Below, piece by piece: positions 3,001-64,000 of a stretch of DNA of 64,000 nt. The stretch lies in the IMG/VR virus record IMGVR_UViG_3300045988_054045, one strand, 5' to 3'. The notes below the pieces were generated by a model. It was not told where the DNA came from and searched no databases. It saw only the letters and a list, made by a program, of their open reading frames with translations. The translations under genes were made by a program, and so were the position numbers. This stretch comes from a virus. Position 1 is the stretch's first letter. Every line of letters begins with the position of its first letter.

Positions 3001-6000
3001 GGGGTAATTCCATTTAGTGACCCAAGCATCTTTAATGGACTTTGTTCTGCTATATCGTCCACTTTAACTAAGGCAGCTATTAGATTACAATTTAATGGTA
3101 GCCTTGCTGTATTGAATCCTTCTCATAAGATTTGGAAGCTGTATGGTGATAGAATGTATGATTCTTTTAATAATGATGAAGAAATTCAGAAGTTACAGGA
3201 ATTGTATAACTCTAAGCCTATAACTAACCTGTCGGAGTTGAGACTTGGTAGACACTATACAATTACTGTGGGTGATACTACATCTACAGAATTTATAGAA
3301 ACTCCTCAGCAGTACTGGGATTTAAGAAGCAGACTAACTCAGTCCGAACTAATGGGAATACCATTTAGTATTGTTGAAAACATTACAGCAGGTCGTGATT
3401 TAGCATCTTATAACTTCACGTTCAAGGACGTAGATGGAAACCTCTACAATATGTGGGATTTAGATGTAGTTAAAAATCTTTACTCTACCACTGACTCTAA
3501 AGAAAGAATACTCCTAAGAAGAGAGCTTCAGAATGCTTTGGGTGCAGTTAGTAATGGTAGGCTTGATTCTGTGTCCATTAATGGGGCAATAGTACAAGTA
3601 GATAAATCTTCTCTACAAACTCAGCCATTTGAGCTAATAATGCCTAAGATTTACGCTAGTAGATTCGGGCTGAAGAGAGGTGATAGTCTAGCAACCATTA
3701 AAAATGATGACACATTCTTCCTAAAGAGGATGTTATCAAATTGGGAAAGTAAAGTTAATGATGCTGATTTCGACATTGAACTGAAGAGGTTAAATGGTAA
3801 GCACGTATATCTAGTAGACAAGAGAGTTTATAAAGATACTCACTTGACTCCTGTGGAAATTGAGACTAGGTGGGATGGAGCTAAGCTTTACAGAGTTAAT
3901 AGCTCTGGAGAGAAGCTACACAGACTATCTGATGAATCAGATAGAATATACACTGATGTTAATGGTAATGAAGTAATTGTTACTAATAATACTCAGTTCT
4001 ATATTGATTCATTTAATTACCACACTATAAAGGTATCTAATAGTGCTGCTATGAGTAAGGATATTAGTAAGATTATTCAGCCTATACTAAGCTCAAAGTC
4101 TAAGGTGGCGAGTAGATTCGCCAAGTATATAGGTAAGAATGACCCTACTGATATTATAACTTATGTGAATAAGCTATACTCAGAAAGTATTAGTAAGTTG
4201 AGAATTAATCCTAGAGCTAAGATAGAAGACCCAAGTATTGATGCAATCAGAGATTCTGCTGCTGAATTACATACGTCTTTTATTAAATCTTTGGATGTTC
4301 TAGCTGCTCGTATCCCTGCTCAGTCTATGCAATCATTTATGCCTATGAGAGTAGTGGGATTTGACGAGACTGACACAAACTCCGCCTACGTTAATTACTT
4401 CCAGTTTTGGCTACAGGGTTCTGACTTGGATATTGATAAAGTTTCCTTGTTAGGATATTCATTTGACAGGACAGGTAAGTATGTTGGATGGAGTCCATAC
4501 TTTAATTTGAGTTCTCAGAGTGCATTAGTGGAATCTGAGAAGCTGCCATTCCCTACAAATAAAGAGTTAGAGTTGGTTGAGACTGATGATACAGCATTGA
4601 CTAATTGGGCTTATGATTTTGTAGGTTCAGGGAAATTGTTTAACTTTAGTGGTTCAAAAGTTCTATTCCTGCCAGAATATGACTTGGACAATTCTTTAGG
4701 TTCAATACAATCTTTATCGAACTTCTTAAGAATGATTAAGAAAAACGGCGGTAAATTGTATATCCCTAAAGGTTCTAGGCTTCCTTTTAACGAAATGAAG
4801 GAGTTGATTGACCGACACAATTTATACGTAAGGAACTCTAGTAACCCAGAGGATATGATTAAGAACTTCATATCTTCTTATATGTTCAAGATTAGTGATA
4901 ATCCTATTAATTTAATGCAATCACAATCATCTATTGATGATGCTGTGGCATTGTTAAAGGATATAGCTAAAGGGTCAACAGAAGGTCAGAGAACTCTACA
5001 ATTTACTCCAGGTAATGTAGTAAATAAGTATGAGTCTATGTATGATTTTCAATCTGGTAAGAAGAACGTTGGTATAGTTGCATCTGCTATTAAAGTGTAT
5101 GATGGTCTAACCCATTATTATAACACTACACTAGGTAGCGGTGATGTAATGAAGCAATCTGGACTATTATTCAACAGAGTTGTTTGTGGTAAAACTTTTA
5201 GACTGTTAGCTAACTCATATACTAGTAATCTAGAATCCGTAAGAAATCCCGAAGTATTAGATGCGTTACAGAACGTAGATAATGACACTGATGCTAAGTT
5301 AGTATTCTCTGCATTAATGTCTGCTGCAACTGATAATGCTAAAGACCCGATATTGGCTAAAATCAATGCTGGTCCTAACATGATGGGATTATATACTTAT
5401 GGTACAGCTATTGGTATTCCTTTAAATGATTTAGCTGGTACTATGATGTCTAAGACTGCTCGTATCCTTTCTAAGCTTATGGACTCTAATGTATTTAATA
5501 GGAAAGATGGTATGTCAATTACCAGTGCTATTAAGTATATCGAAAATGGTCCTAGCATTGGGGAATTAGACCCTGAATTCATCTCTATACTAAAGAAGGA
5601 GTTTGGGTCTGGCACAGATGCATCTGACTTCGTAATTGGTAAGATGTTACAATATAGACTCTCTGACTTATCTAAAGGTCACGAATTGATTGATAGCTTA
5701 AGAAAGAGAATAAGGTCTATGGAGGCGTCTATGAACAAGGTTTCAATGTATAAGTTTCTAGAAGAGTTATCTGATTATATTAGATTCGTCTATATCATAA
5801 ATAATGATGTAATCACTAACTCTGAAGGGGTACAATACAGAGCCATTGATTCGATAAAACAATTAGTTCAGGGTGCATCTGAGATGGGTAGGTTAAGGAG
5901 TATATATGCTCTTAATCAAGGTCTTCCTAACAAAGTAGAGGATAAATTTAAGTTTATCGATAAATTTGAAAGTATCTTCGAGGATAGAATAAGGGAGATT

Positions 6001-7518
6001 TCAGGTGAAGAGAAGGAATCAACTGTAATGGTTAATGGAATGGTTATGAAAGTTTCTGACGTTATCTCAAAGCTAAGGAATCTAACTAACGATGAAAGTA
6101 ATCCATACAGAATTTCTTTCAGCAGATTCATGTCTGACGAAGAGTATAGAAATACCTTAATTGCTCTATATGGAGGATTAAAGCATTCATTCAATGTGTT
6201 AGATGCAGCTTGGTCAGTACCTCACTACAGGGGCTACTTAGAAACTTTCCATATGGATATGGAAGGTAATTACATGATTATGTCTAAGTACAGAATGATG
6301 AGGGATTTAGGTCCTAGAATCATCAAAGATGGTAGCTTCTATAGCAGTAAGGAAAGGTCTAATGTTTATAAGAAGCTTCAATCATTCTGTGATATGACTC
6401 TTAGAAACACTTGGATGAAAACTTCTGAAAAGGTAATTACAGTCCCAGCAGGTGTAACTATTATGAATAGTATTGGTAATACCTTTACTACTCAAGGTGA
6501 TACCCCTATTATGTTAGGAACGAGGTGGGGTAATGAGTCATTTAAGATGTGGATGGATTCTGTGGTGATTCCCGAATTAAAGGATATAGAACCTAATGAA
6601 TTTATTCAATCTCTAAGTCCTATTAGATTAGATAGAACACTTAGTGGTAACTCTGCATTTGTGTATTCTTTACCAACTAATATGTTGCCTAAGTCTACAT
6701 CAGAGATAGAGCGTTTAAACAGATATAAGAGAGCCTTTAATCAATTACAAGGTGCTCCTACATATCAAGGTTATCCACTAACTGATTTATTCTTCTATTA
6801 TAATCTGATAAACTTTAACAACACTGTCTCTCAAAGTTCTTTGACTACAATCTTTGAGGACATCATTAGAACAAAGTCATCCCCACTGGTTGAGGAATTT
6901 CATAAATTCACATCAGTGTTAGATTCTAACTCAGAGTTAGTTGAGGGGGTAGATTTCTCTTATGAAGAAGCTCAAAAGTGGTGTGCCCCTATTGAGGATA
7001 CTAATTATTCTACTAGTTATTATGTCAGAGACTATAACAACGCAGATATGAAGTATCATCTATTTGTAAGAAAATCTAACTCTGCTGACGTTGGTGAGGT
7101 AGATGGAGATTTTGACTATGATTCCGATTATATGGATTGGGTTGGAGATGATTATGATAATGGAGACATGGGTGGACGTCAATATGGTCCTAACCTAGAG
7201 GATTATACAAAGGTTATTGAAAATACCAACTATACTAATCCCTGGGATACAGCTGACATATATAATGACTACAACATAAGAATTGACTCAAATTCTGTAA
7301 TTAATCTTGATGCTGACAAGAAGCTAAAATCTATAAGCTATAAGGGTAAAACCTATAGTAAGGAGGTTCTAGTGAGTCTAGCTAAATCACTAGGTGGCTC
7401 TGAATCAGATTTAGATATACCTTATGTAACCAGAGTTGTTGATGGCATAAACGTGAAAGCTATTGATGGCTTACAGTATTCTGCAATCATAACTCAACTA
7501 TTAGACAATCCTTGTTAA
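1..7518 (+). CDS. Giant virion-type RNA polymerase (crAss-like vRNAP family), 5' partial; reading frame is open from base 1
   Basis: Frame 1 has no stop from nt 1 to the TAA at 7516-7518. The track start at 334 is only the first GTG, so the protein exceeds 2500 aa. A DLDID (DxDxD metal-binding type) motif lies at nt 4423-4437 in the context FWLQGSDLDIDKVSLLGY. Coupled giant ORFs follow it, as in crAss-like transcription/ejection blocks. Confidence 0.7.
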   Translation, partial: LTTFNGKEDWEKALPFFKEFLYLDFVSDGPLVESYLALKTKNGNIQYESAISDLLQLSTSIFFNSYFSHNLVPKETSTQEFRRRQEEVFGAENLTSIKRGSKDIGILLPSYVPVMEDVAAAYAMTTDAYVSGIARDGEGRALSGVAMSMLGTNYRNQWVNQCMNPGSATNAFSLLNSSFLHRGMVVSREYKGKIGSKKHIDFNMSESFYTAFVSNYLCNIVGNTDAAFLPSVISDKSSLIHMVENLKSTSGLDKPYANLTKDETIAIINKELGDCYVKIINSITSEWEQLNSALRSIDTSLVFNNPVQYPLLASKKVIPVFNPMTNFAEVNAVYGNDSRKVLEEVLRVYQNIVRGKDLEIKDEVSFQGSKTLSFNRTLISLTNRFNPEYFTRAGLNVEEVFGKLTNSEDFWRIKEVELLTDLLDNDFMIETTDERGNALTTPEVAYLAKNKDWIKFSTKRVILAKYTNFGKTFDITKWSDLYSIGGYTENGITYNWGTPGFSFSKFLEIRGGELQLHPDLARFNVMDYLLSQEYVLSTVGTHANHPAKKATSSPNDLVEEAARYIAQHKRNVSYTAAKQVMIQGLINGILPEYTIAVIEDDTAPTYNPMGDHDEHGVKQYDGSTFVSPETMYLENNSLGGAKVGVDKKPFIHFYKEGSATGGIIKTAGFALTNFTMRNSKFYQRMVKKMWGKTWEFEGSLFNDNVLVDFQGNLIPYEDVYYKGTDGKFYMINSITYVPEDGTYMIIKSEVEPDGTIVRQLPAEITPKPGEGPRVTASGTTLYPVTTNFGLYQMFGGWNSYSKSEDGLIPSEVSVRNVVKAVNGVGVKVSDSVVSQSDVVQPLKWASIQYVVTAGAIKQGAANVNLKHAYFDDNPYLTMKFKTTDIGIQLDAEHNADESTLSIMTQVVNALSSRGYTSEQAGEVYEAMFALTEAGINDYVEGFRQYMDDSDPTKFKDAIISTIVKSIQNSTSRDGNLMQAVMDTLISDTKAGKLVKYKNVEGVIPFSDPSIFNGLCSAISSTLTKAAIRLQFNGSLAVLNPSHKIWKLYGDRMYDSFNNDEEIQKLQELYNSKPITNLSELRLGRHYTITVGDTTSTEFIETPQQYWDLRSRLTQSELMGIPFSIVENITAGRDLASYNFTFKDVDGNLYNMWDLDVVKNLYSTTDSKERILLRRELQNALGAVSNGRLDSVSINGAIVQVDKSSLQTQPFELIMPKIYASRFGLKRGDSLATIKNDDTFFLKRMLSNWESKVNDADFDIELKRLNGKHVYLVDKRVYKDTHLTPVEIETRWDGAKLYRVNSSGEKLHRLSDESDRIYTDVNGNEVIVTNNTQFYIDSFNYHTIKVSNSAAMSKDISKIIQPILSSKSKVASRFAKYIGKNDPTDIITYVNKLYSESISKLRINPRAKIEDPSIDAIRDSAAELHTSFIKSLDVLAARIPAQSMQSFMPMRVVGFDETDTNSAYVNYFQFWLQGSDLDIDKVSLLGYSFDRTGKYVGWSPYFNLSSQSALVESEKLPFPTNKELELVETDDTALTNWAYDFVGSGKLFNFSGSKVLFLPEYDLDNSLGSIQSLSNFLRMIKKNGGKLYIPKGSRLPFNEMKELIDRHNLYVRNSSNPEDMIKNFISSYMFKISDNPINLMQSQSSIDDAVALLKDIAKGSTEGQRTLQFTPGNVVNKYESMYDFQSGKKNVGIVASAIKVYDGLTHYYNTTLGSGDVMKQSGLLFNRVVCGKTFRLLANSYTSNLESVRNPEVLDALQNVDNDTDAKLVFSALMSAATDNAKDPILAKINAGPNMMGLYTYGTAIGIPLNDLAGTMMSKTARILSKLMDSNVFNRKDGMSITSAIKYIENGPSIGELDPEFISILKKEFGSGTDASDFVIGKMLQYRLSDLSKGHELIDSLRKRIRSMEASMNKVSMYKFLEELSDYIRFVYIINNDVITNSEGVQYRAIDSIKQLVQGASEMGRLRSIYALNQGLPNKVEDKFKFIDKFESIFEDRIREISGEEKESTVMVNGMVMKVSDVISKLRNLTNDESNPYRISFSRFMSDEEYRNTLIALYGGLKHSFNVLDAAWSVPHYRGYLETFHMDMEGNYMIMSKYRMMRDLGPRIIKDGSFYSSKERSNVYKKLQSFCDMTLRNTWMKTSEKVITVPAGVTIMNSIGNTFTTQGDTPIMLGTRWGNESFKMWMDSVVIPELKDIEPNEFIQSLSPIRLDRTLSGNSAFVYSLPTNMLPKSTSEIERLNRYKRAFNQLQGAPTYQGYPLTDLFFYYNLINFNNTVSQSSLTTIFEDIIRTKSSPLVEEFHKFTSVLDSNSELVEGVDFSYEEAQKWCAPIEDTNYSTSYYVRDYNNADMKYHLFVRKSNSADVGEVDGDFDYDSDYMDWVGDDYDNGDMGGRQYGPNLEDYTKVIENTNYTNPWDTADIYNDYNIRIDSNSVINLDADKKLKSISYKGKTYSKEVLVSLAKSLGGSESDLDIPYVTRVVDGINVKAIDGLQYSAIITQLLDNPC

Positions 7519-8605: not shown

Positions 8606-11600
8606 TGGGATGCATTTATGATTACAAAGGACATATCTTCCAATCTGAATTAGAATTAGATGATTTCTTACTTGAAAGGGGACATTTAGTATCTAAGTAT
8701 GGGGACATTGTGTTTAGTAAAAGCAATAGGGCTATCCAGACTTATGACTCCGTAATGAACTTAAAGATGGATACTGAGGCTCTTAAAGCAAGTAAGATAA
8801 TCTCTGAGGTTGAAGATGGAAAAAATGATATTGAAAACATTAATGTATCTGGAAATGGATATATTGGTGTGAATAAGTTTCTACAAGGTCTTAGAAACTT
8901 GGAGGGGGACTTATTATTCCCAGAATTTAGACCTGAAAATTATTGGAAGGAGATTAAGCCAAGATGGGCAGGAGGCAAGTTTGACAAAGAGGAGGCTGAT
9001 GCAATATTTGGTGAGGGAGTAGAAACTAGACCTATTGTAAGTGATGAGGAGTTTGCTAGAGCAAGAGAGGTTATTGAAAACAAATGGAAAGCTCAGGGTA
9101 AAATTGGTACTGAACTGCATAAGGCAATACAAAAGTATTTCAGTGAATCAAAGAGTGGTAGGAATATAAGGGAATCAGATGATAACTTCCTAATCAATAC
9201 GTATTTCCCATCTATATTAGACACTAAGCTAGTTCCAAGCAAGGTTATTGCAGAAACCGTCAAATACTGTAGAGACCTAGAGAAATCATTACAGAGAGAA
9301 TTTGGTGAAGACTTGATATACCTTCCAGAAGTTGCAGTTTCTGGAACTACTTCTCAAATAGGAGAATCTGGAAATCCCAATAAGCTATTAGGAGTTATTG
9401 ACTTACTAGTAATTGATGGAAGGGGAAATGCCCACATTATTGACTACAAGACATCACCCAGACCATATGTAGGAACTGCTTCTGAAGCTGGGTATGATTC
9501 TGCTAAAATCTTGACCTTCAAATACCAGCTAGGTGTGTATGAGCGTCTATTAAGAAAATATGGAATAAACACTAGCGGTTCTAGGTTGTTTGTAGCCCCC
9601 ATTCAGCTGTCAGATTTTAAGAGAGAAGGTGACGATTGGGTATACAGTGGTATAAAAGAATATTCAGGTCATGTAGAAGACTTGACTCAAGATATTAAGA
9701 CAAATATTAATATACAAGAGAATATTGACGAATTCCTTCCAGCACCGTTTGTTACTAAAGCTACAACGGAAAACCTACTCCAAACTGTAACCAGTGTAAT
9801 GTCAAAGTGGTTCCCTAAATATGATAGCGTTCCAGGAGAAATCACGGATGATATGGTAGCTGAAACTATAAAAGAAGGGAAGGGTGATAAGCCTAACCCT
9901 GAAACAGGTAAGTATGTATACTCTCCAAAAGGCAATGGGTATCCTCTTAAGGGAGATACATATGAGGAGCTATTTGTAAAGGTAAAAAGAAGGATGAATA
10001 GTATAGCCAACAATAAGATAAACACCACTCAGGTTATTAAGGAGGGTTTAATAAAGGCTATAGAGGATGAGAATCCGTACTATGAGTTTACAAAAGCACA
10101 AATTCCAGACAATCCTAGTGGAGTTAATGGATGGTTTCAAAGAAGAATGTCTAGATATTGTAACCGTAATTGGGAAGTGGTCGACTGTGAACCTGCAGAA
10201 TATCTAGGGTGCATACTACTCAGAAATAAATTTACTAATCAAATAGATGTAGTGAAAATTAGTACATCAATGCTAAAAAGGTCTAGAGAGTTAGTAAAGG
10301 GAAGACATGGTCTTACTGGAGCATTCGAAAGTGATATTATATCGCAGAATAAACCTAACTCTTTGATGATGGAAAGTGTTAATGGTAATATAGAACTAAT
10401 GGAAGCTATGTTAGTGCTTAATAATTTACCTAGTCTGTTTGAGGAGAACGCTATAGTAGGAGAAGTTAGTGTATATAACCCATTTAGAGAGGAGGGTATA
10501 TCTGCAGACAATAAACAGCTGTTATACTGCTTCAATGAGTTGGACAAGCTGTCTCCTATTGGCGTAAATAACATGAAGGGAAGAAACGCTGCTGTTAAGA
10601 TGGCGAATAGGTATGATATATTCTATAACAGGTTTAGGGAGATTATATCTAATGTTAAGGATGATACTAAGATAAACAAGAAGTGGAGAAAGTTTACTGA
10701 ATCTACCAGTGCTCTAGATGCTTGCATTGGAGACCCAACCCAGCTTAGACTAGAGCTTCTTAACCTTAGAAAAGAGTTTTTGGAAGCATTTCCTAACGTT
10801 AATGATACTAGACCTAACGATGATGTAATAGGTATGCCTCACGTCCAAGTATACAGGATGCTAGAAATGGCTATTGGTGAAATAGACGGTCTTGACTTCA
10901 GACAGCAGCTTAGTGACCATGATAAGTGGTTAGAATCAATTTATGTATGGAAAGCTGGTATGGAAGGTACATATCTTGATAATCCTGGTAATATGAAGAG
11001 TCCTATCCTAAATAAGTTGACCTCTTTAGTAACTGTGGCTTATCAGAATATCAGGGATACCGTAAATAGGTCTCAGGGAGAAATCAGGAATTTAGTCAAT
11101 GAATTAAAGAAGGACCAGAACTTCACCTATTTAAAGGAGAGGACAATAGGTAATCAGGCTACTCTATACAGAGATATGATAGTATATACAGATGATGGTG
11201 ATATACTACTAAAGAATCCAGACGACCCAACAACTGGGCTATCTGAGGCACAGAGGAAATTTCTGAAGTATTTTCTTAAAACGGTTAATTCCAACAGATT
11301 TAAGAATATGACTGAGGAAGAATTAGAGGAACTAAGGTTGTCAGGCGATGTTAGGTATTACAGGCTACCTCTAGCTGCTGGTAATGCTACATCTATTGCC
11401 TCAAGTAAGGGACTATTATCTGCAATAAAAGACAAGCTCCAGGATTGGAATCCAAAGAAGGCTGTAGAAAGGGCTAAAACAAAGGTAGAGGGCTTCTTAG
11501 ACCCAACTGACGTTAAAATTGAGAAAGTCCGTAAGGGTGAGCTATGGGAGATGACCAACTCATTTGATATTGGTGAAAAGGGTTCAGAGATACGATTAAG

Positions 11601-18700: not shown

Positions 18701-20410
18701 ACCAGTAAACAGCTGATTAAAATAAGACTGTCTTAATTCAAATTCTGGACATAGAGCTGCATATCCTTCTAATACATTATCCTTTTCGATGTCTTCACAC
18801 CTTCTATCAAAGTCATGTGTTAGAACTCCATCATTGTCCAAGAATCTCTCTACCCTATACTTATCATTTCCAGATGGAAGAACTGGTAAATGACTTGTGT
18901 TCTCTAATCCTATGGTTACAGCTTGGGCTAGTGTAGTAGGGATTCTCTTTTGTCTTACAAAGAAGAATCCTTTAGTATATCTCTTCAATTCTCTAACAGC
19001 GTCCTTACTGATTTTAATGTCAAATCCGATAGGAATTGTACCACTCTCAGCTAATTGATTACCGTTATACTTAATTTTGATTACACCCTTAGAATTCTCA
19101 TTCTGACTGTCTAACTTACTTGTCTCCTTATTGATAGGAATATATTCCCTATTTGCTTGGATAACAGCTATATTAGTAGTACTATTGGGGTCAAATCCTT
19201 CCTTAAACAAAGGATAGTCTTCCCAGGGTATTCTATCTGGGTCTCCAGGTACAGTTAATCTGCTAACACCTCTAATGTTGAATACTGGAGATAATGTATA
19301 ATCATTAAGGATATATACTACCCCTAGCCTATATATTTCATCATTCCAGTATCCTAACCTATTATAGATGTTCATCACATTATAATACTCATACTGTCCT
19401 GATTCATCCTTATAGTCCTTATCTACCCTACCTATGTTATTCTCTACATTCAATTCAGGTAGAAAATGCAGAGATAGGTCAGTAAGCTCCTTATATTCAA
19501 TATCTGGATTAGCTACATTACCTAAGAATAACATATTCTGACAAGTAGTTTGTGCAGCTGCACTATTAACTACATTGTAAGCTACATTAATATCGTTGAT
19601 ACTAACTGCCTGAACTGTTTCAAATCCAGTAATACTAATCTTAGCTACATTGTTATATACAGCAAACTGTTTCATAATCTTGAATGAAGTAGTCATTTCA
19701 TTTCCATCAATATCTGATGTACTCCTTGTATAATAGACTACTACATTATTATAAGATGAATCTATATTAGTTAACAAGAATGAAGCTGATTTATAACTGT
19801 TCTCATCTCTAATTCCACCTTGTATAGAGGATGGGTCATTCAAATTACCAACATGGCAAGTTACTATGCCTGACTCAGCTATAAAATCTGTCTCATTCCC
19901 ATCTGAATCTGATAACTTAAAGTAAAACACATAATTACCAACTCTTAAATTACCACTGGTATTCAATCCCATAAATGTAAGATTGGCTATGTTATTAGTT
20001 TTCTTATAAAGAGATATATCAGACTCAAAGGAATCTATATCGTATATATTGGTGTCATTATCTCCTTCTCTGTCTACAATCTGATAAGTATTCATACCTG
20101 TAGATGAGAATCTTGTGTTTATTAGCTTAGGATAGTTACTTCCATCATTAAGGATAAGATTTACCGAACCATCATAAGATTGCTGCGTTACAATATCAAT
20201 AGGATGGTTTAGGTCGAAGCTAAGTAATTCTGTATCTAAGTTAATTAAACTACCCTTTGGATACAGAATTACTCCATCTTCTACTATATCTTCATTAGTT
20301 CTGAGTACTCTTAAAGGATTATACTCATACACTAAAGCTCCTTTTTGTTGAAGTTGATTCAATCCTAAGTCAAGGTCTAATACCTTACCACTTAGTGATT
20401 TGAAATTCAT
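15719..20410 (-). CDS. Large tail structural protein (1563 aa), function unknown
   Basis: Uninterrupted 4.7-kb ORF, 8-nt overlap with the downstream gene, located after the head/connector genes. No enzymatic motif recognised. Confidence 0.6.
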   Translation of the reverse strand: MNFKSLSGKVLDLDLGLNQLQQKGALVYEYNPLRVLRTNEDIVEDGVILYPKGSLINLDTELLSFDLNHPIDIVTQQSYDGSVNLILNDGSNYPKLINTRFSSTGMNTYQIVDREGDNDTNIYDIDSFESDISLYKKTNNIANLTFMGLNTSGNLRVGNYVFYFKLSDSDGNETDFIAESGIVTCHVGNLNDPSSIQGGIRDENSYKSASFLLTNIDSSYNNVVVYYTRSTSDIDGNEMTTSFKIMKQFAVYNNVAKISITGFETVQAVSINDINVAYNVVNSAAAQTTCQNMLFLGNVANPDIEYKELTDLSLHFLPELNVENNIGRVDKDYKDESGQYEYYNVMNIYNRLGYWNDEIYRLGVVYILNDYTLSPVFNIRGVSRLTVPGDPDRIPWEDYPLFKEGFDPNSTTNIAVIQANREYIPINKETSKLDSQNENSKGVIKIKYNGNQLAESGTIPIGFDIKISKDAVRELKRYTKGFFFVRQKRIPTTLAQAVTIGLENTSHLPVLPSGNDKYRVERFLDNDGVLTHDFDRRCEDIEKDNVLEGYAALCPEFELRQSYFNQLFTGTQFEVKMAKSQFSKKYFDRSGTHFYNLSYTTNDSTQDETYNIMAIGDNVKALKGKKQLFSARAGEAEEAWRVSYYNYTNKSSNARNLLRGSWGPYIGLEGYNTNKMSLIDIKIPNYEENLLDTYFEIRYEDSSAFYAICNRMLWDDLDEDENTMIAKNLFRGDCYIGNYTHRMCRNFQDSSAPINDDIVDQMSWKDNYTIGDSEKNGKINRGDVNAIKMGHWVTIKVCSNVNLSMRSIDMSYTSELGLTGKARGFYPLQAMSVTGESKIPESFVTNAGINSTTSDKYYYELPNVPAIKNKFHIRVMYSDINVNDSFKNGYRVFKLTHYRDYPLTYGSIVKLVEWFGNIICVFEHGVALIPVNERAVAGEGAGGNIFINTSNVLPENPKMLSDTFGTQWGESVIKTPYYVYGVDTVGKKIWRTNGQTFEVISDFKVQKFLNDNISLTEKEKTPIIGIRNVKTHYNRFKQDVMFTFYDDINTLEENVWNLCYNEVMQKFVTFYSWVPSYSENIDNIFFSFDRDTSKTITKLTSNYPLIGMQGGAIVDNVLTVVDGKAKLGNLQLNLDISGSSIEYSIADDRVRNKFFITNGNQVSVNANSVGDSRWTIPIKAVVYNQGTDLVEGEVKNIVKTLYSNVTVVTKMRYDLLTTSFWKHGQAGLMTTKKPISSCYWYGKQHPFEFEFIVVDNPSVHKIFNNLQIISNKTQPESFHFEVVGEVYNFANDKRNAYFRQEATKHLYQYNGADIVYNHDYLDIIPEQRDILYSTTKYKDMSIMFPLFYSRVDSLNEIEDHYQSVTSAGRDYQYISGSEIVHDKQLNEFKIATHIKACPFKKRYLQEITQDRYSSLVSAGYTNVLVQNGKWYEVMEYGRINGNMDYLEDKWDIQIPSITYWAKNELAWTVKDKDGNTYPPLNLVNNPLPESMTALNITSDSDIPSELRDRGYSANFLSLDVNKWSNERKETRIRDKYVKIKVRYTGDELAIITALKTLYIVSYA

Positions 20411-62070: not shown

Positions 62071-62448
62071 TTATACATTAAAGTCAGCTCTTACTTTAGT
62101 CTTTATATTTCCTACTAGTGTAAGGTAGTCTAAATATTTCTGTCTATCTGTCTGGTCATCGGATAGTCCTAGAACAATACTATTAGAGCTGTTGATTAAA
62201 TCAAACTCCTCATCTTGGTCTACATACTGCCTAATAATGGCTTTGATGCATTCTTTGTGGTCTGGTTGACCAAACAGATGAACTTGAATATACGTCCACC
62301 TTGTCTCTTGTGTTACCTCTTCAGTCTCAGGGTCAGTAACCTCTACTACTTTAGACTGAATATCATAATTATAGTAATATGTGCCATTACCTAGCTTCTC
62401 TATTGAGTTAGGTTGTACATTCATTTCTATTCTTTTTGGTTCTAACAT
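62071..62448 (-). CDS. Hypothetical acidic protein overlapping the RT 3' end
   Basis: 125-aa ORF whose start overlaps the last 41 nt of the RT gene. It is acidic and beta-rich, so it does not resemble Avd. Confidence 0.45.
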   Translation of the reverse strand: MLEPKRIEMNVQPNSIEKLGNGTYYYNYDIQSKVVEVTDPETEEVTQETRWTYIQVHLFGQPDHKECIKAIIRQYVDQDEEFDLINSSNSIVLGLSDDQTDRQKYLDYLTLVGNIKTKVRADFNV

Positions 62449-63643
62449 AAGGTCTTATTTTAAAATTTACTGGGAATGAATATCTGGTTAGAGAGTAGAA
62501 TAGTTCCCTGCTCTTACTCTCAAAGTAATAAGATTTGTTATTGTATACAAAGTTAACTCTAAAACACTTACTATAGCTAACCATATCCACAACATGAATA
62601 TACTTGTTATAAAATCTAGAAATATTAGACTTCTTCCCGTCCCAATTAGAGAACCTTAAACCTGTATCTCTTTGAATCTTTCTTAACAGATTCTTTGAAT
62701 TACAGAATTTCAGCCAACCAAAATAGGATTGCATTCTCCTTCTTAGTTCTTGTCTGTCTATTTTACCAGTTTGGTATCTACTAACAAGTCTAAATAACCT
62801 AATTTTAATTGACTTTCTCAGTAATACATGGGTGTGATAGAACCTATAGCCAACGAAGTCTATACCTCTAACATCTACTGGGAATATTTGGTAATTTGAT
62901 TTCAACCTTAAATTTAGAACCTCTTTTAAGTACATCTTTATTGCTATGAGTACTCTTCTCAAGAAGTCCTTATCACTGCTGAGAATTACAATATCATCAG
63001 CATACCTGAAGTAGAATTTACATTTTAATTCTTCCTTAACCCAATGGTCAAAGTAAGCTAAGTATAAGTTTGCAAAGAATTGAGAAAGATAGTTTCCAAT
63101 AGGAACGCCGTCTGCTGAATAAATGATTCCGATTAGCAGGATTAATAAATTTTTATCCTTAATCTTACGTTTGATTATATCACACAATATGTCATGGTCA
63201 ATAGAAGGATAAAACTTCTTTACATCCATCTTTAAACAATAGAGTGTTTCATTTGGATGCTTTACCAAAGCTGCTTTTAAATCGTATGCTACATTATGAA
63301 TACCTCTATCCTTAATACAAGAATAAGTTTGCTTGATGAATATCTTAGTCCAGATAGGCTCCATTACATTCATAATAGCATGATGTGTTATTCTATCTGG
63401 ATAGTATGGTAATCTAAATATCAACCTTTCTTTGGGTTCATATATTTTAAATGTACTATACTCAGAAGTTTCATAAACTAAATCTCTTAGCTGTTCTGAA
63501 AGTCTTCTATTCTCTTCCTCTCTGTTCTTATCATGTTTGAGGATTCCCCATCTTACTGATTTATGCTTTCTAGCTTTATCATCTGCTTTCTCAATATTCT
63601 CTATATCATATACCTGTTCATGTAAATAGCCTATACGCTTCAA
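62408..63643 (-). CDS. DGR-type reverse transcriptase
   Basis: RT motifs read in order: KERLIFRLPYYPDRITHHAI, LKMDVKKFYPSIDH, GVPIGNYLSQFFANLYL (nt 63080-63100 encode IGNYLSQ), FRYADDIVILS (YADD at nt 62993-63004), IDFVGYRF. The start is TTG: a TAA lies two codons upstream and there is no in-frame ATG for about 90 codons. Confidence 0.85.
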   Translation of the reverse strand: MKRIGYLHEQVYDIENIEKADDKARKHKSVRWGILKHDKNREEENRRLSEQLRDLVYETSEYSTFKIYEPKERLIFRLPYYPDRITHHAIMNVMEPIWTKIFIKQTYSCIKDRGIHNVAYDLKAALVKHPNETLYCLKMDVKKFYPSIDHDILCDIIKRKIKDKNLLILLIGIIYSADGVPIGNYLSQFFANLYLAYFDHWVKEELKCKFYFRYADDIVILSSDKDFLRRVLIAIKMYLKEVLNLRLKSNYQIFPVDVRGIDFVGYRFYHTHVLLRKSIKIRLFRLVSRYQTGKIDRQELRRRMQSYFGWLKFCNSKNLLRKIQRDTGLRFSNWDGKKSNISRFYNKYIHVVDMVSYSKCFRVNFVYNNKSYYFESKSRELFYSLTRYSFPVNFKIRPYVRTKKNRNECTT

Positions 63644-63717
63644 GTCTTATATATTTATTGTGGAAGCTTTCGAGAATTAACCTACTAACACCCTGTTATT
63701 AAATACTACGTTGTCTT

Positions 63718-63743
63718 TTGCCAAGAGGCAAGGGTGCTGTTTA
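63718..63743 (-). repeat. Spacer stem-loop plus distal arm of a 14-nt inverted repeat bracketing the TR
   Basis: - strand RNA: UAAACAGCACCCUU (63743-63730) is the exact complement of AAGGGUGCUGUUUA (63938-63925). It is immediately followed by the hairpin UUGCC-UCUU-GGCAA (63731-63718). Confidence 0.6.
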
Positions 63744-63782
63744 GACTGTAAAATAAAACAAATTACCTAAAGAAATATATAA

Positions 63783-63938
63783 TAAGCCTACATTAGTATT
63801 AGCATTGCTGACTCCATTATTAGAATTGAAGTAGCTAAGACTAGCATTACTACCATTATTAGCGTTGCTGCTAACGATGAGTGTTTTGTAATAATTTTCT
63901 TGTCCAGCACCAACAGAATATAGGTAAACAGCACCCTT
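63783..63938 (-). repeat. DGR template repeat (TR) candidate, non-coding; 5' boundary uncertain
   Basis: Lies directly upstream of the RT in the same orientation. Stops occur in all frames upstream, and there is no start codon. In the frame set by the VR match it has at least 10 AAY codons within 29 codons (AGC AGC AAC GCT AAT AAT GGT AGT AAT ... AAT ACT AAT GTA GGC). Confidence 0.65.
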
Positions 63939-63966
63939 AATCTCGTATTGTTATCTTATATAATTA

Positions 63967-64000
63967 TTAAACTACTTTATTTAGTGTCCTGAAGCCCACA
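63967..64000 (-). CDS. 3' end of the presumed DGR target gene (partial; ...VGFRTLNKVV*), containing the last bases of the VR
   Basis: Open frame from the window edge to the TAA at 63969-63967. Nt 63991-64000 (+: GAAGCCCACA) aligns to the TR at 63783-63792 (+: TAAGCCTACA) with 8/10 identity, and both mismatches fall at TR adenines on the coding strand. The GFR motif is typical of C-type-lectin-fold VR ends. Confidence 0.5.
   Translation of the reverse strand, partial: VGFRTLNKVV

Follow-up and report, generated by a model that had tools for sequence, protein, structure and literature searches.

DGRs are the principal means of targeted hypermutation in gut phages, and the way in which their reverse transcriptase (RT) is confined to its template has been explained only recently, for one Avd-dependent element only. 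[quoted passage not shown] (bioRxiv 10.1101/2023.10.23.563531; also cited as Nature 2025;638:1122). In the BPP-1 RNA the cPRT Stop is an 11-bp avd:Sp duplex, formed between the last avd codons, which lie upstream of the template region (TR), and Sp59-70; the Sp strand leads directly into a short stem-loop (Sp71-78), which is followed by three unpaired bases, and A80 and A81 make A-minor contacts on the G:C pairs of C68 and C69 in the duplex (bioRxiv 10.1101/2023.10.23.563531). The BPP-1 cDNA ends just ahead of this duplex, and cis-primed synthesis was abolished when the upstream strand was deleted, when the avd:Sp pairing was disrupted or when the stem-loop was removed: the cPRT Stop positions the template:primer duplex and blocks the RT (bioRxiv 10.1101/2023.10.23.563531). 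Compensatory mutations failed to restore activity in Bordetella, which implies that base-pairing alone is not the whole function of the duplex there (bioRxiv 10.1101/2023.10.23.563531). In a survey included in the same study, duplexes of this kind, with a mean length of 13 bp, were predicted in 207 of 278 Avd-containing DGRs; an adjacent stem-loop was present in 47 of the 207, and adenosines came after it in 45 of those 47 (bioRxiv 10.1101/2023.10.23.563531).

Structured RNAs located just upstream of bacterial and phage RT genes have also been described as the motifs RT-17 (RF03020), RT-18 (RF03021) and RT-10, the last of which is the BPP-1 spacer (Weinberg et al. 2017, PMC5737381).

The DNA analysed here, referred to below as the window, is a stretch of 64,000 nucleotides from the virus record IMGVR_UViG_3300045988_054045 of IMG/VR; the features under study lie close to its end and are all encoded on the minus strand (Table 1). 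A megablast search of positions 62400-64000 against a phage collection gave zero matches. Protein searches placed the RT among those of crAss-like phages, and the unchanged RT protein was found on long human-gut metagenome contigs. The contigs with the same RT defined the TR as window positions 63885-63787 (99 nt), with homology extending to 63784; in one of them, L001, the VR is located at 9551-9652 and the TR at 9759-9860, the latter corresponding to window positions 63885-63784. The TR repeat was not found elsewhere in the 64-kb window, the VR being located past the window end. In full contigs such as L001 the target gene codes for 681 aa and matches PHROG phrog_5302, 'tail protein' (E 1e-90). 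The target stop codon and the TR are separated by 81 nt, and the TR-RT spacer is 143 nt long.

Table 1. Features of the DGR locus at the end of the 64-kb window.
Feature	Position	Strand	Remarks
Tail-protein target gene, 3' end	63967..64000	-	Stop codon 63969-63967; only the last few VR bases are inside the window
5' arm AAGGGTGCTGTTTA	63938-63925	-	Conserved 13-bp core 63937-63925
Template region (TR)	63784..63885	-	About 99-102 nt, adenine-rich; direct repeat with the VR in L001
3' arm TAAACAGCACCCTT	63743-63730	-	Core 63743-63731; in the TR-RT spacer, 43 nt past the TR
Stem-loop UGCC-UCUU-GGCA	63719..63730	-	Adjoins the 3' arm, with zero unpaired bases between
Adenosine run, unpaired	63716..63718	-	AAAAG/AAAAAA kept in all lineages examined
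Predicted single-stranded segment GACAACGUAGUAUUUAAUAACA	63694..63715	-	Conserved columns without consensus pairs
Stem-loop with conserved UAGUAG and CGAA internal-loop bases	63662..63693	-	RNAalifold pairs 347-377 etc.
Rfam RT-17-like spacer segment	63642..63735	-	Full-model match, below the gathering score
DGR reverse transcriptase, 411 aa, TTG start	62408..63643	-	RVT_1; GNYLSQ motif in the translation
Small acidic ORF, 125 aa	62071..62448	-	Overlaps the RT stop

Comparison of the RT with bRT (PDB 8UB7) by phmmer gave an E value of 3.6e-47, residues 6-328 being aligned to residues 7-324, that is, to the full length of bRT. In at least 70 related contigs, the mismatches between VR and TR were nearly all located at TR adenines. 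Together with the position of the VR at the 3' end of the target gene, these sequence features identify the locus as a DGR. Contigs with an identical RT, recovered from different samples (L001-L011), carried VRs that differed from one another, with 17-27 VR/TR mismatches each. Such differences indicate that the element is active, and at the level of sequence they are direct evidence that diversification of the tail protein is ongoing in human gut samples.

A sequence-only reading of the window had singled out the two 14-mers listed in Table 1 as the arms of a long-range stem in the DGR RNA. The two are exact reverse complements, 181 nt apart and both on the minus strand, and the coordinates assigned to them were right. 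The hairpin reported to follow directly after the distal arm, UUGCC-UCUU-GGCAA, was confirmed at 63731-63718; its first U residues are common to the end of the 3' arm, and U63731-A63718 is an alternative closing pair. As had been proposed, the stem closes the TR into a loop; the whole TR lies within these 181 nt. The 5' arm, which had been assigned to the 5' region of the TR, lies outside it, 39 nt ahead of the TR and 28 nt past the target stop codon.

Perfect inverted repeats of at least 14 nt with a loop of no more than 300 nt were present in 3 of 2000 dinucleotide shuffles of positions 63600-64000. The 64-kb window contains one other perfect inverted repeat of at least 14 nt, located at 20223-20273 and having a loop of about 23 nt. 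When a 361-nt RNA (63990..63630) was folded, 11 central pairs of the 14 showed a pair probability of 0.95 or higher, and the hairpin at 63719..63730 a probability of 0.98. Both the stem and the hairpin were also part of the minimum free energy (MFE) structure of the stretch whose folding had been proposed as a check in the sequence-only reading. The fold of the whole region was not more stable than those of its shuffles (z = -1.2).

A scan of IMG/VR with the RT yielded 80 loci, with RT identities of 99 to 49%, and 47 distinct homologues with an RT identity of at least 63% were aligned with MAFFT (alignment A1). The 13-bp core was paired in 98.2% of the cells of A1, and 4 of the 13 pairs had changed on both sides (36 cells). 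Neither the observed pairing nor the observed covariation score was reached in any of 500 shuffles, and when the partner was slid by 1-3 columns, as a control, 35-56% of cells were paired. RNAalifold, run on A1 without any hint, predicted the same 13 pairs and the hairpin. The two G:C pairs adjacent to the hairpin are G:C in 46 of the 47 sequences, and the remaining stem varies. The 5' arm of L069 was misaligned by MAFFT and therefore counted as unpaired in A1; a duplex search identified in this locus a 13-bp stem that includes 2 G·U pairs. Arms that had changed together could also be recognised by eye: AGGGGUACUAUUUA with UAAAUAGUACCCU and AAGGAUACUGUUUA with UAAACAGUAUCC, as well as AGGGCACUAUUUA with UAAAUAGUGUCCU, AGGGCGCUAUUUC with GAGAUAGCGUCCU and AGGUUGUUAUU with AAUAACAACCU.

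In alignment A1 the stem had 59 G·U cells and 3 A·C cells. The complementarity therefore holds only in RT-sense RNA, and not in the other strand or in DNA, in agreement with the suggestion that the arms pair in the DGR RNA, the 3' arm being part of the spacer between TR and RT.

The same arrangement was found over a wider range of relatives. In 14 RT lineages (100 to 49% identity) the 14 nt that precede the hairpin have a strong complement upstream of the TR, with an empirical P of 0.001 or lower in 12 of the 14 and of 0.018 and 0.035 in the other two. The hairpin UGCC-UCUU-GGCA is invariant across the 47 close homologues and is compensated in distant lineages, where it appears as UUACC/GGUAA, UUGUC/GACAA and UUGGC/GCCAA. 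The distance between the duplex and the TR, 39 nt in the window, is 0-10 nt in many other lineages.

An independent sample was obtained by searching IMG/VR with the hairpin motif CCTTGCCNCTTGGCAAAA alone, which returned at least 120 loci. Among the matches listed, 96 loci had enough flanking sequence, with 68 distinct 3' arms; a complement of -12 kcal/mol or lower was present upstream in 89 of these 96 listed loci and in the downstream control region in 28 of the 96. The form common to the listed matches consists of AGGUU, a bulged G and 8-9 variable pairs, then GACCU on the opposite strand. Cognate pairing was evaluated with 52 arms, among the matches listed, which differed at 4 or more positions. 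A raw-energy rank test was confounded by the GC content of the arms, and a row- and column-centred permutation test was used. For the 52 listed arms, pairing with the cognate upstream region was stronger than non-cognate pairing (residual of -4.3 vs +0.3 kcal/mol, z = -15.2), and none of 10000 permutations of the cognate pairing was as extreme; the cognate region ranked first for 23 of the 52. The loop between the arms contained a TR with adenine-specific mismatches in 46 of these 52, again among the matches listed, and a DGR-type RT, recognised as an ORF with YxDD and GxxxSQ, was located within 1.5 kb downstream in 82 of 101 listed loci. The layout is the same in the annotated CrAssphage LMMB (Carjivirus).

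These findings identify the inverted repeat as a real, conserved RNA stem and not a product of chance; the compensatory covariation in related phage DGRs, suggested as a check in the sequence-only reading, was found in A1, in the 14 lineages and in the 52 listed arms. Over dozens of lineages, covariation separates a freely variable stem from parts that are fixed, namely the AGG/CCU end, the hairpin and the adenosines.

The architecture of this RNA shows similarities to that of BPP-1. In both elements a duplex joins a segment upstream of the TR to one in the spacer downstream of it, with a length of 11 bp in BPP-1 and of 13-14 bp here; the spacer strand passes without interruption into a short hairpin with a tetraloop, after which come unpaired adenosines; two consecutive C:G pairs are located at the hairpin end of the duplex, involving C68/C69 of Sp in BPP-1 and C63733/C63732 in the window; and a single-stranded stretch precedes a longer stem-loop. 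In addition, the RT is homologous to bRT over the full length of the latter. Because every sequence-level feature of the cPRT Stop is present and the RT aligns with bRT, we read the two 14-mers as the strands of a cPRT Stop-type duplex of the DGR RNA, a reading to which, arguing from this analogy, we assign a probability of about 0.75. It is well supported that the clamp is of a kind already described and solved, the present locus being a further case, in a DGR of a crAss-like phage. What the locus contributes is a clear natural record of covariation and the occurrence of the clamp in apparently Avd-less DGRs of crAss-like phages.

By the same analogy, this assembly would be in contact with the palm and thumb of the RT. 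The adenosines at 63716..63718 stand at the position of the Bordetella A-minor adenosines and may have the same role, docking on the invariant G:C pairs of the stem. The segment GACAACGUAGUAUUUAAUAACA is a candidate equivalent of the 'thumb ring', and the stem-loop at 63662..63693 a candidate RT-binding stem-loop.

The two elements differ in several respects. The structure of BPP-1 has been solved and its mutants assayed, whereas the clamp described here is known from sequence and predicted pairing. The upstream strand is non-coding here and corresponds to the 3' end of avd in BPP-1; the hairpin has 4 bp and a UCUU loop, in place of 2 bp and UNCG; and the RT is extended at its C terminus by a basic tail. 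Free covariation is seen in the variable part of the stem, in contrast to the inactivity of the compensatory mutants of Bordetella. The duplex abuts the TR in Bordetella and is 39 nt away from it here, where a cDNA stopped at the duplex would carry about 35 extra nt that are non-homologous. Finally, neither an Avd gene nor an Avd-binding stem-loop was found at this locus, so that its RNP must differ from the one solved.

A likeness exists also with the a1/a2 repeats of the retron msr-msd RNA, a long-range inverted repeat that closes the template RNA into a loop. In retrons, a1/a2 pairing places the 2'-OH priming nucleotide beside the template end, and reverse transcription is bounded. What is shared with the present element is the long-range inverted repeat closing the template RNA into a loop. 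Retrons have an RT of a different clade and a priming guanosine located in the msr, and show neither adenine mutagenesis nor a VR/TR pair.

The spacer segment 63735-63642 matched the Rfam model RT-17 over model positions 1-95 of 95 with 28.9 bits (E 6e-4), the gathering score of this model being 40.4; the match to RT-18 was weaker and also below the gathering score. None of 10 relatives compared with Rfam reached the gathering threshold. Like RT-17, the segment has a CCU-UGCC-loop-GGCA-AAA start and a UAGUAG...CGAAA stem-loop. The hairpin that adjoins the 3' arm is the first helix of the match, and the stem-loop at 63662..63693 the second helix of both the RT-17 and the RT-18 match. The RT-17 model starts at 'gaCCu' with these bases unpaired; it is thus a model without the long-range helix to the upstream arm.

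Other explanations of the stem were considered. It could be a purely structural or processing element, which protects the RNA from nucleases or marks a cleavage out of the tail-gene/RT mRNA, without any control of the RT. Conservation of the stem as RNA is compatible with such an element, contact with the RT being argued here by analogy, and the distance of 39 nt between the stem and the TR, which are not abutting, also agrees with it. However, the module that contacts the RT in the solved RNP is reproduced here by the AGG/CCU end, which is invariant, the abutting hairpin and the A-run, and the element is found just upstream of a DGR RT (82 of 101 loci, among the matches listed). A stem of 13-14 bp is, moreover, short for RNase III. 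We consider this explanation improbable.

The sequence-only reading had noted a second AGGGTG, located by it at about 63691-63700, and had suggested that this motif competes for the CACCCT core of the arms. The motif is actually at 63694-63689, and its bases belong to the conserved local stem-loop described above (63662..63693), which is also part of the Rfam RT-17/18 models. A switch in which CACCCU in the 3' arm pairs at times with the 5' arm and at times with this AGGGUG would account for the MFE structure of the spacer folded without the 5' arm, in which CACCCU:AGGGUG is formed. In the full RNA, however, the probability of this pairing was about 0, and in the alignment it was 78% paired, showed no compensatory change and had values that were reached by 500 of 500 shuffles. 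The proposed competition is not supported, and a switch is very unlikely.

Even less credit can be given to a repeat that acts as DNA, in the form of a cruciform or as a protein or recombination site, comparable to the homing hairpin/cruciform beside the Bordetella VR. The 5' arm is indeed only 28 nt past the target gene, but the excess of G·U over A·C cells (59 vs 3) is not that of a DNA element, the arms are 181 nt apart and form no local hairpin, and the partner arm is part of the spacer, next to RNA motifs that are associated with RTs. A chance inverted repeat in AT-rich intergenic DNA, a region with many imperfect inverted repeats, has next to no probability given the 3 of 2000 shuffles, and is refuted by the covariation across dozens of lineages seen in A1, in the 14 lineages and in the 52 listed arms.

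If the repeat is a cPRT Stop-type duplex, as we propose, the following series of events can be envisaged. The RNA, read from the minus strand, extends from the end of the tail gene over the TR and the 143-nt spacer and on into the RT gene. Within it, the segment located 39 nt ahead of the TR is paired with the one that lies in the spacer, 43 nt past the TR, which leaves the TR in a 181-nt loop, and the spacer strand of the duplex continues into the 4-bp tetraloop hairpin, the unpaired adenosines, the conserved single strand and the second stem-loop. By analogy with Bordetella, this assembly would dock on the reverse transcriptase and keep both the TR 3' end and the priming nucleotide within the active site, allowing the cDNA to start in cis. 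The duplex would be a physical barrier at which the RT stops after the TR has been copied, and the adenine-mutagenised cDNA would in this way be confined to the template. The suggestion, made in the sequence-only reading, that the clamp sets the limits of the cDNA agrees with the Bordetella cPRT Stop, on the strength of the homologous architecture.

In the cPRT Stop, the primer strand, with its priming adenosine about 2 nt 5' of the spacer strand, is paired to the 3' end of the TR. A priming site analogous to Sp A56 was looked for: among the relatives compared, neither a conserved template:primer duplex nor a conserved priming adenosine was found just 5' of the 3' arm. In the window, UUUACA could pair with UGUAGG, and its A is not conserved; ACAGUC of the window is UUUGUC in relatives. 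Other candidate primer pairings were not significant.

Additional long-range pairings were also evaluated. The segment UUAUAUAUUU (63782-63773), just past the TR, is complementary to AAAUAUAUAA (63656-63647), just before the RT start. As a second long-range helix this pair was rejected: it was 97% paired in the 47-sequence alignment and almost invariant there, and its duplex energy was not significant against the null in any of the 14 lineages (P 0.01-0.9). Distant lineages have, at the same places, different and yet complementary sequences, for example UUGUUAUC/GAUAACAA in L069 and AUGUGUUU/AAACACAU in L074; duplexes of this type are AU-rich and their energies were not significant against the null. 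The sequences thus give only a hint of a second helix. A 4-bp GUCU:AGAC pairing, which would form a pseudoknot with the UUAUAUAUUU:AAAUAUAUAA helix, is invariant. The MFE structure also contained a pairing between CCUAUAUU, which follows the 5' arm, and AAUGUAGG, which belongs to the TR 3' end; it was discarded, its register being lost outside lineages with an RT identity of at least 85%.

The sequence-only reading had further proposed that the clamp could substitute for contacts of a missing accessory protein. As stated, this is not supported: the Bordetella element, which depends on Avd, has a duplex of the same kind, and such duplexes were predicted in 207 Avd-containing DGRs. Avd genes are common among DGRs without being universal. 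At the present locus, searches with Pfam, PHROGs and phmmer against the PDB detected no Avd signal in the neighbouring ORFs, and RNAalifold predicted no conserved stem-loop at the position of the Avd-binding stem-loop in the A1 consensus. In the literature, AVD genes are reported in only two zeta crAss-like phages, and Avd goes unmentioned in a study of cassettes from epsilon crAss-like phages.

Two products of the locus are of interest in this respect. The RT consists of a bRT-like core (residues 6-328) and, C-terminal to it, a very basic tail of about 83 aa (residues 329-411; window 62408-62656), which is absent from the 328-aa Bordetella bRT (PDB 8UB7). The small acidic ORF (net charge -9; phrog_11557; no Pfam match) comes directly after the RT in 81 of the 82 loci selected by RT and in 35 of the 88 selected by the hairpin motif alone, among the matches listed; the genes beyond it differ between loci. 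It may be part of the cassette, although this assignment, made from gene order, is uncertain. Its AlphaFold model (pLDDT 87.5) has a long beta-hairpin and three helices, and a fold search with this model against the PDB gave no match at E 0.001 or lower. Judged by its model, the product of the small ORF is not Avd-like; it could be an undescribed companion gene of DGRs.

It is possible, though rather doubtful, that the DGR RNP of crAss-like and related gut phages works without Avd, the positioning role being taken by the clamp module (invariant AGG/CCU end, hairpin and A-run) in combination with the RT tail and/or the small acidic protein. Any relevance of the RT tail or of the small ORF to an Avd-free RNP is speculation. 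If the proposal were true, the element would be a naturally minimal, Avd-independent DGR, and the locus offers a compact candidate system for asking whether Avd is dispensable. The clamp also provides a rule by which the boundaries of DGR RNAs can be annotated in phage genomes, and extends the Rfam RT-17-type motifs by the long-range helix that they lack.

Some loci departed from the general pattern. In L072 (RT identity 57%), positions 5740-6001 include a VR-like stretch directly ahead of the spacer hairpin, and no TR was found in the 13-kb locus; to judge from its sequence, this looks like a decayed cassette that has lost the TR. Within the DGR RNA region L068 is a chimera of two lineages, with two mismatches in its stem, and in L012 GC-rich foreign DNA occupies the place of the sequence ahead of the TR, the 5' arm included. 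The L068 chimera and the L012 replacement could be due to an assembly artefact or to natural recombination. In addition, RNAalifold predicted a short pairing of A1 columns 129-133 with 173-177 (about 63894-63890 with 63855-63851 in the window), which links a segment just upstream of the TR to one inside it, and in which changes on both sides were found in 14 and 6 sequences.
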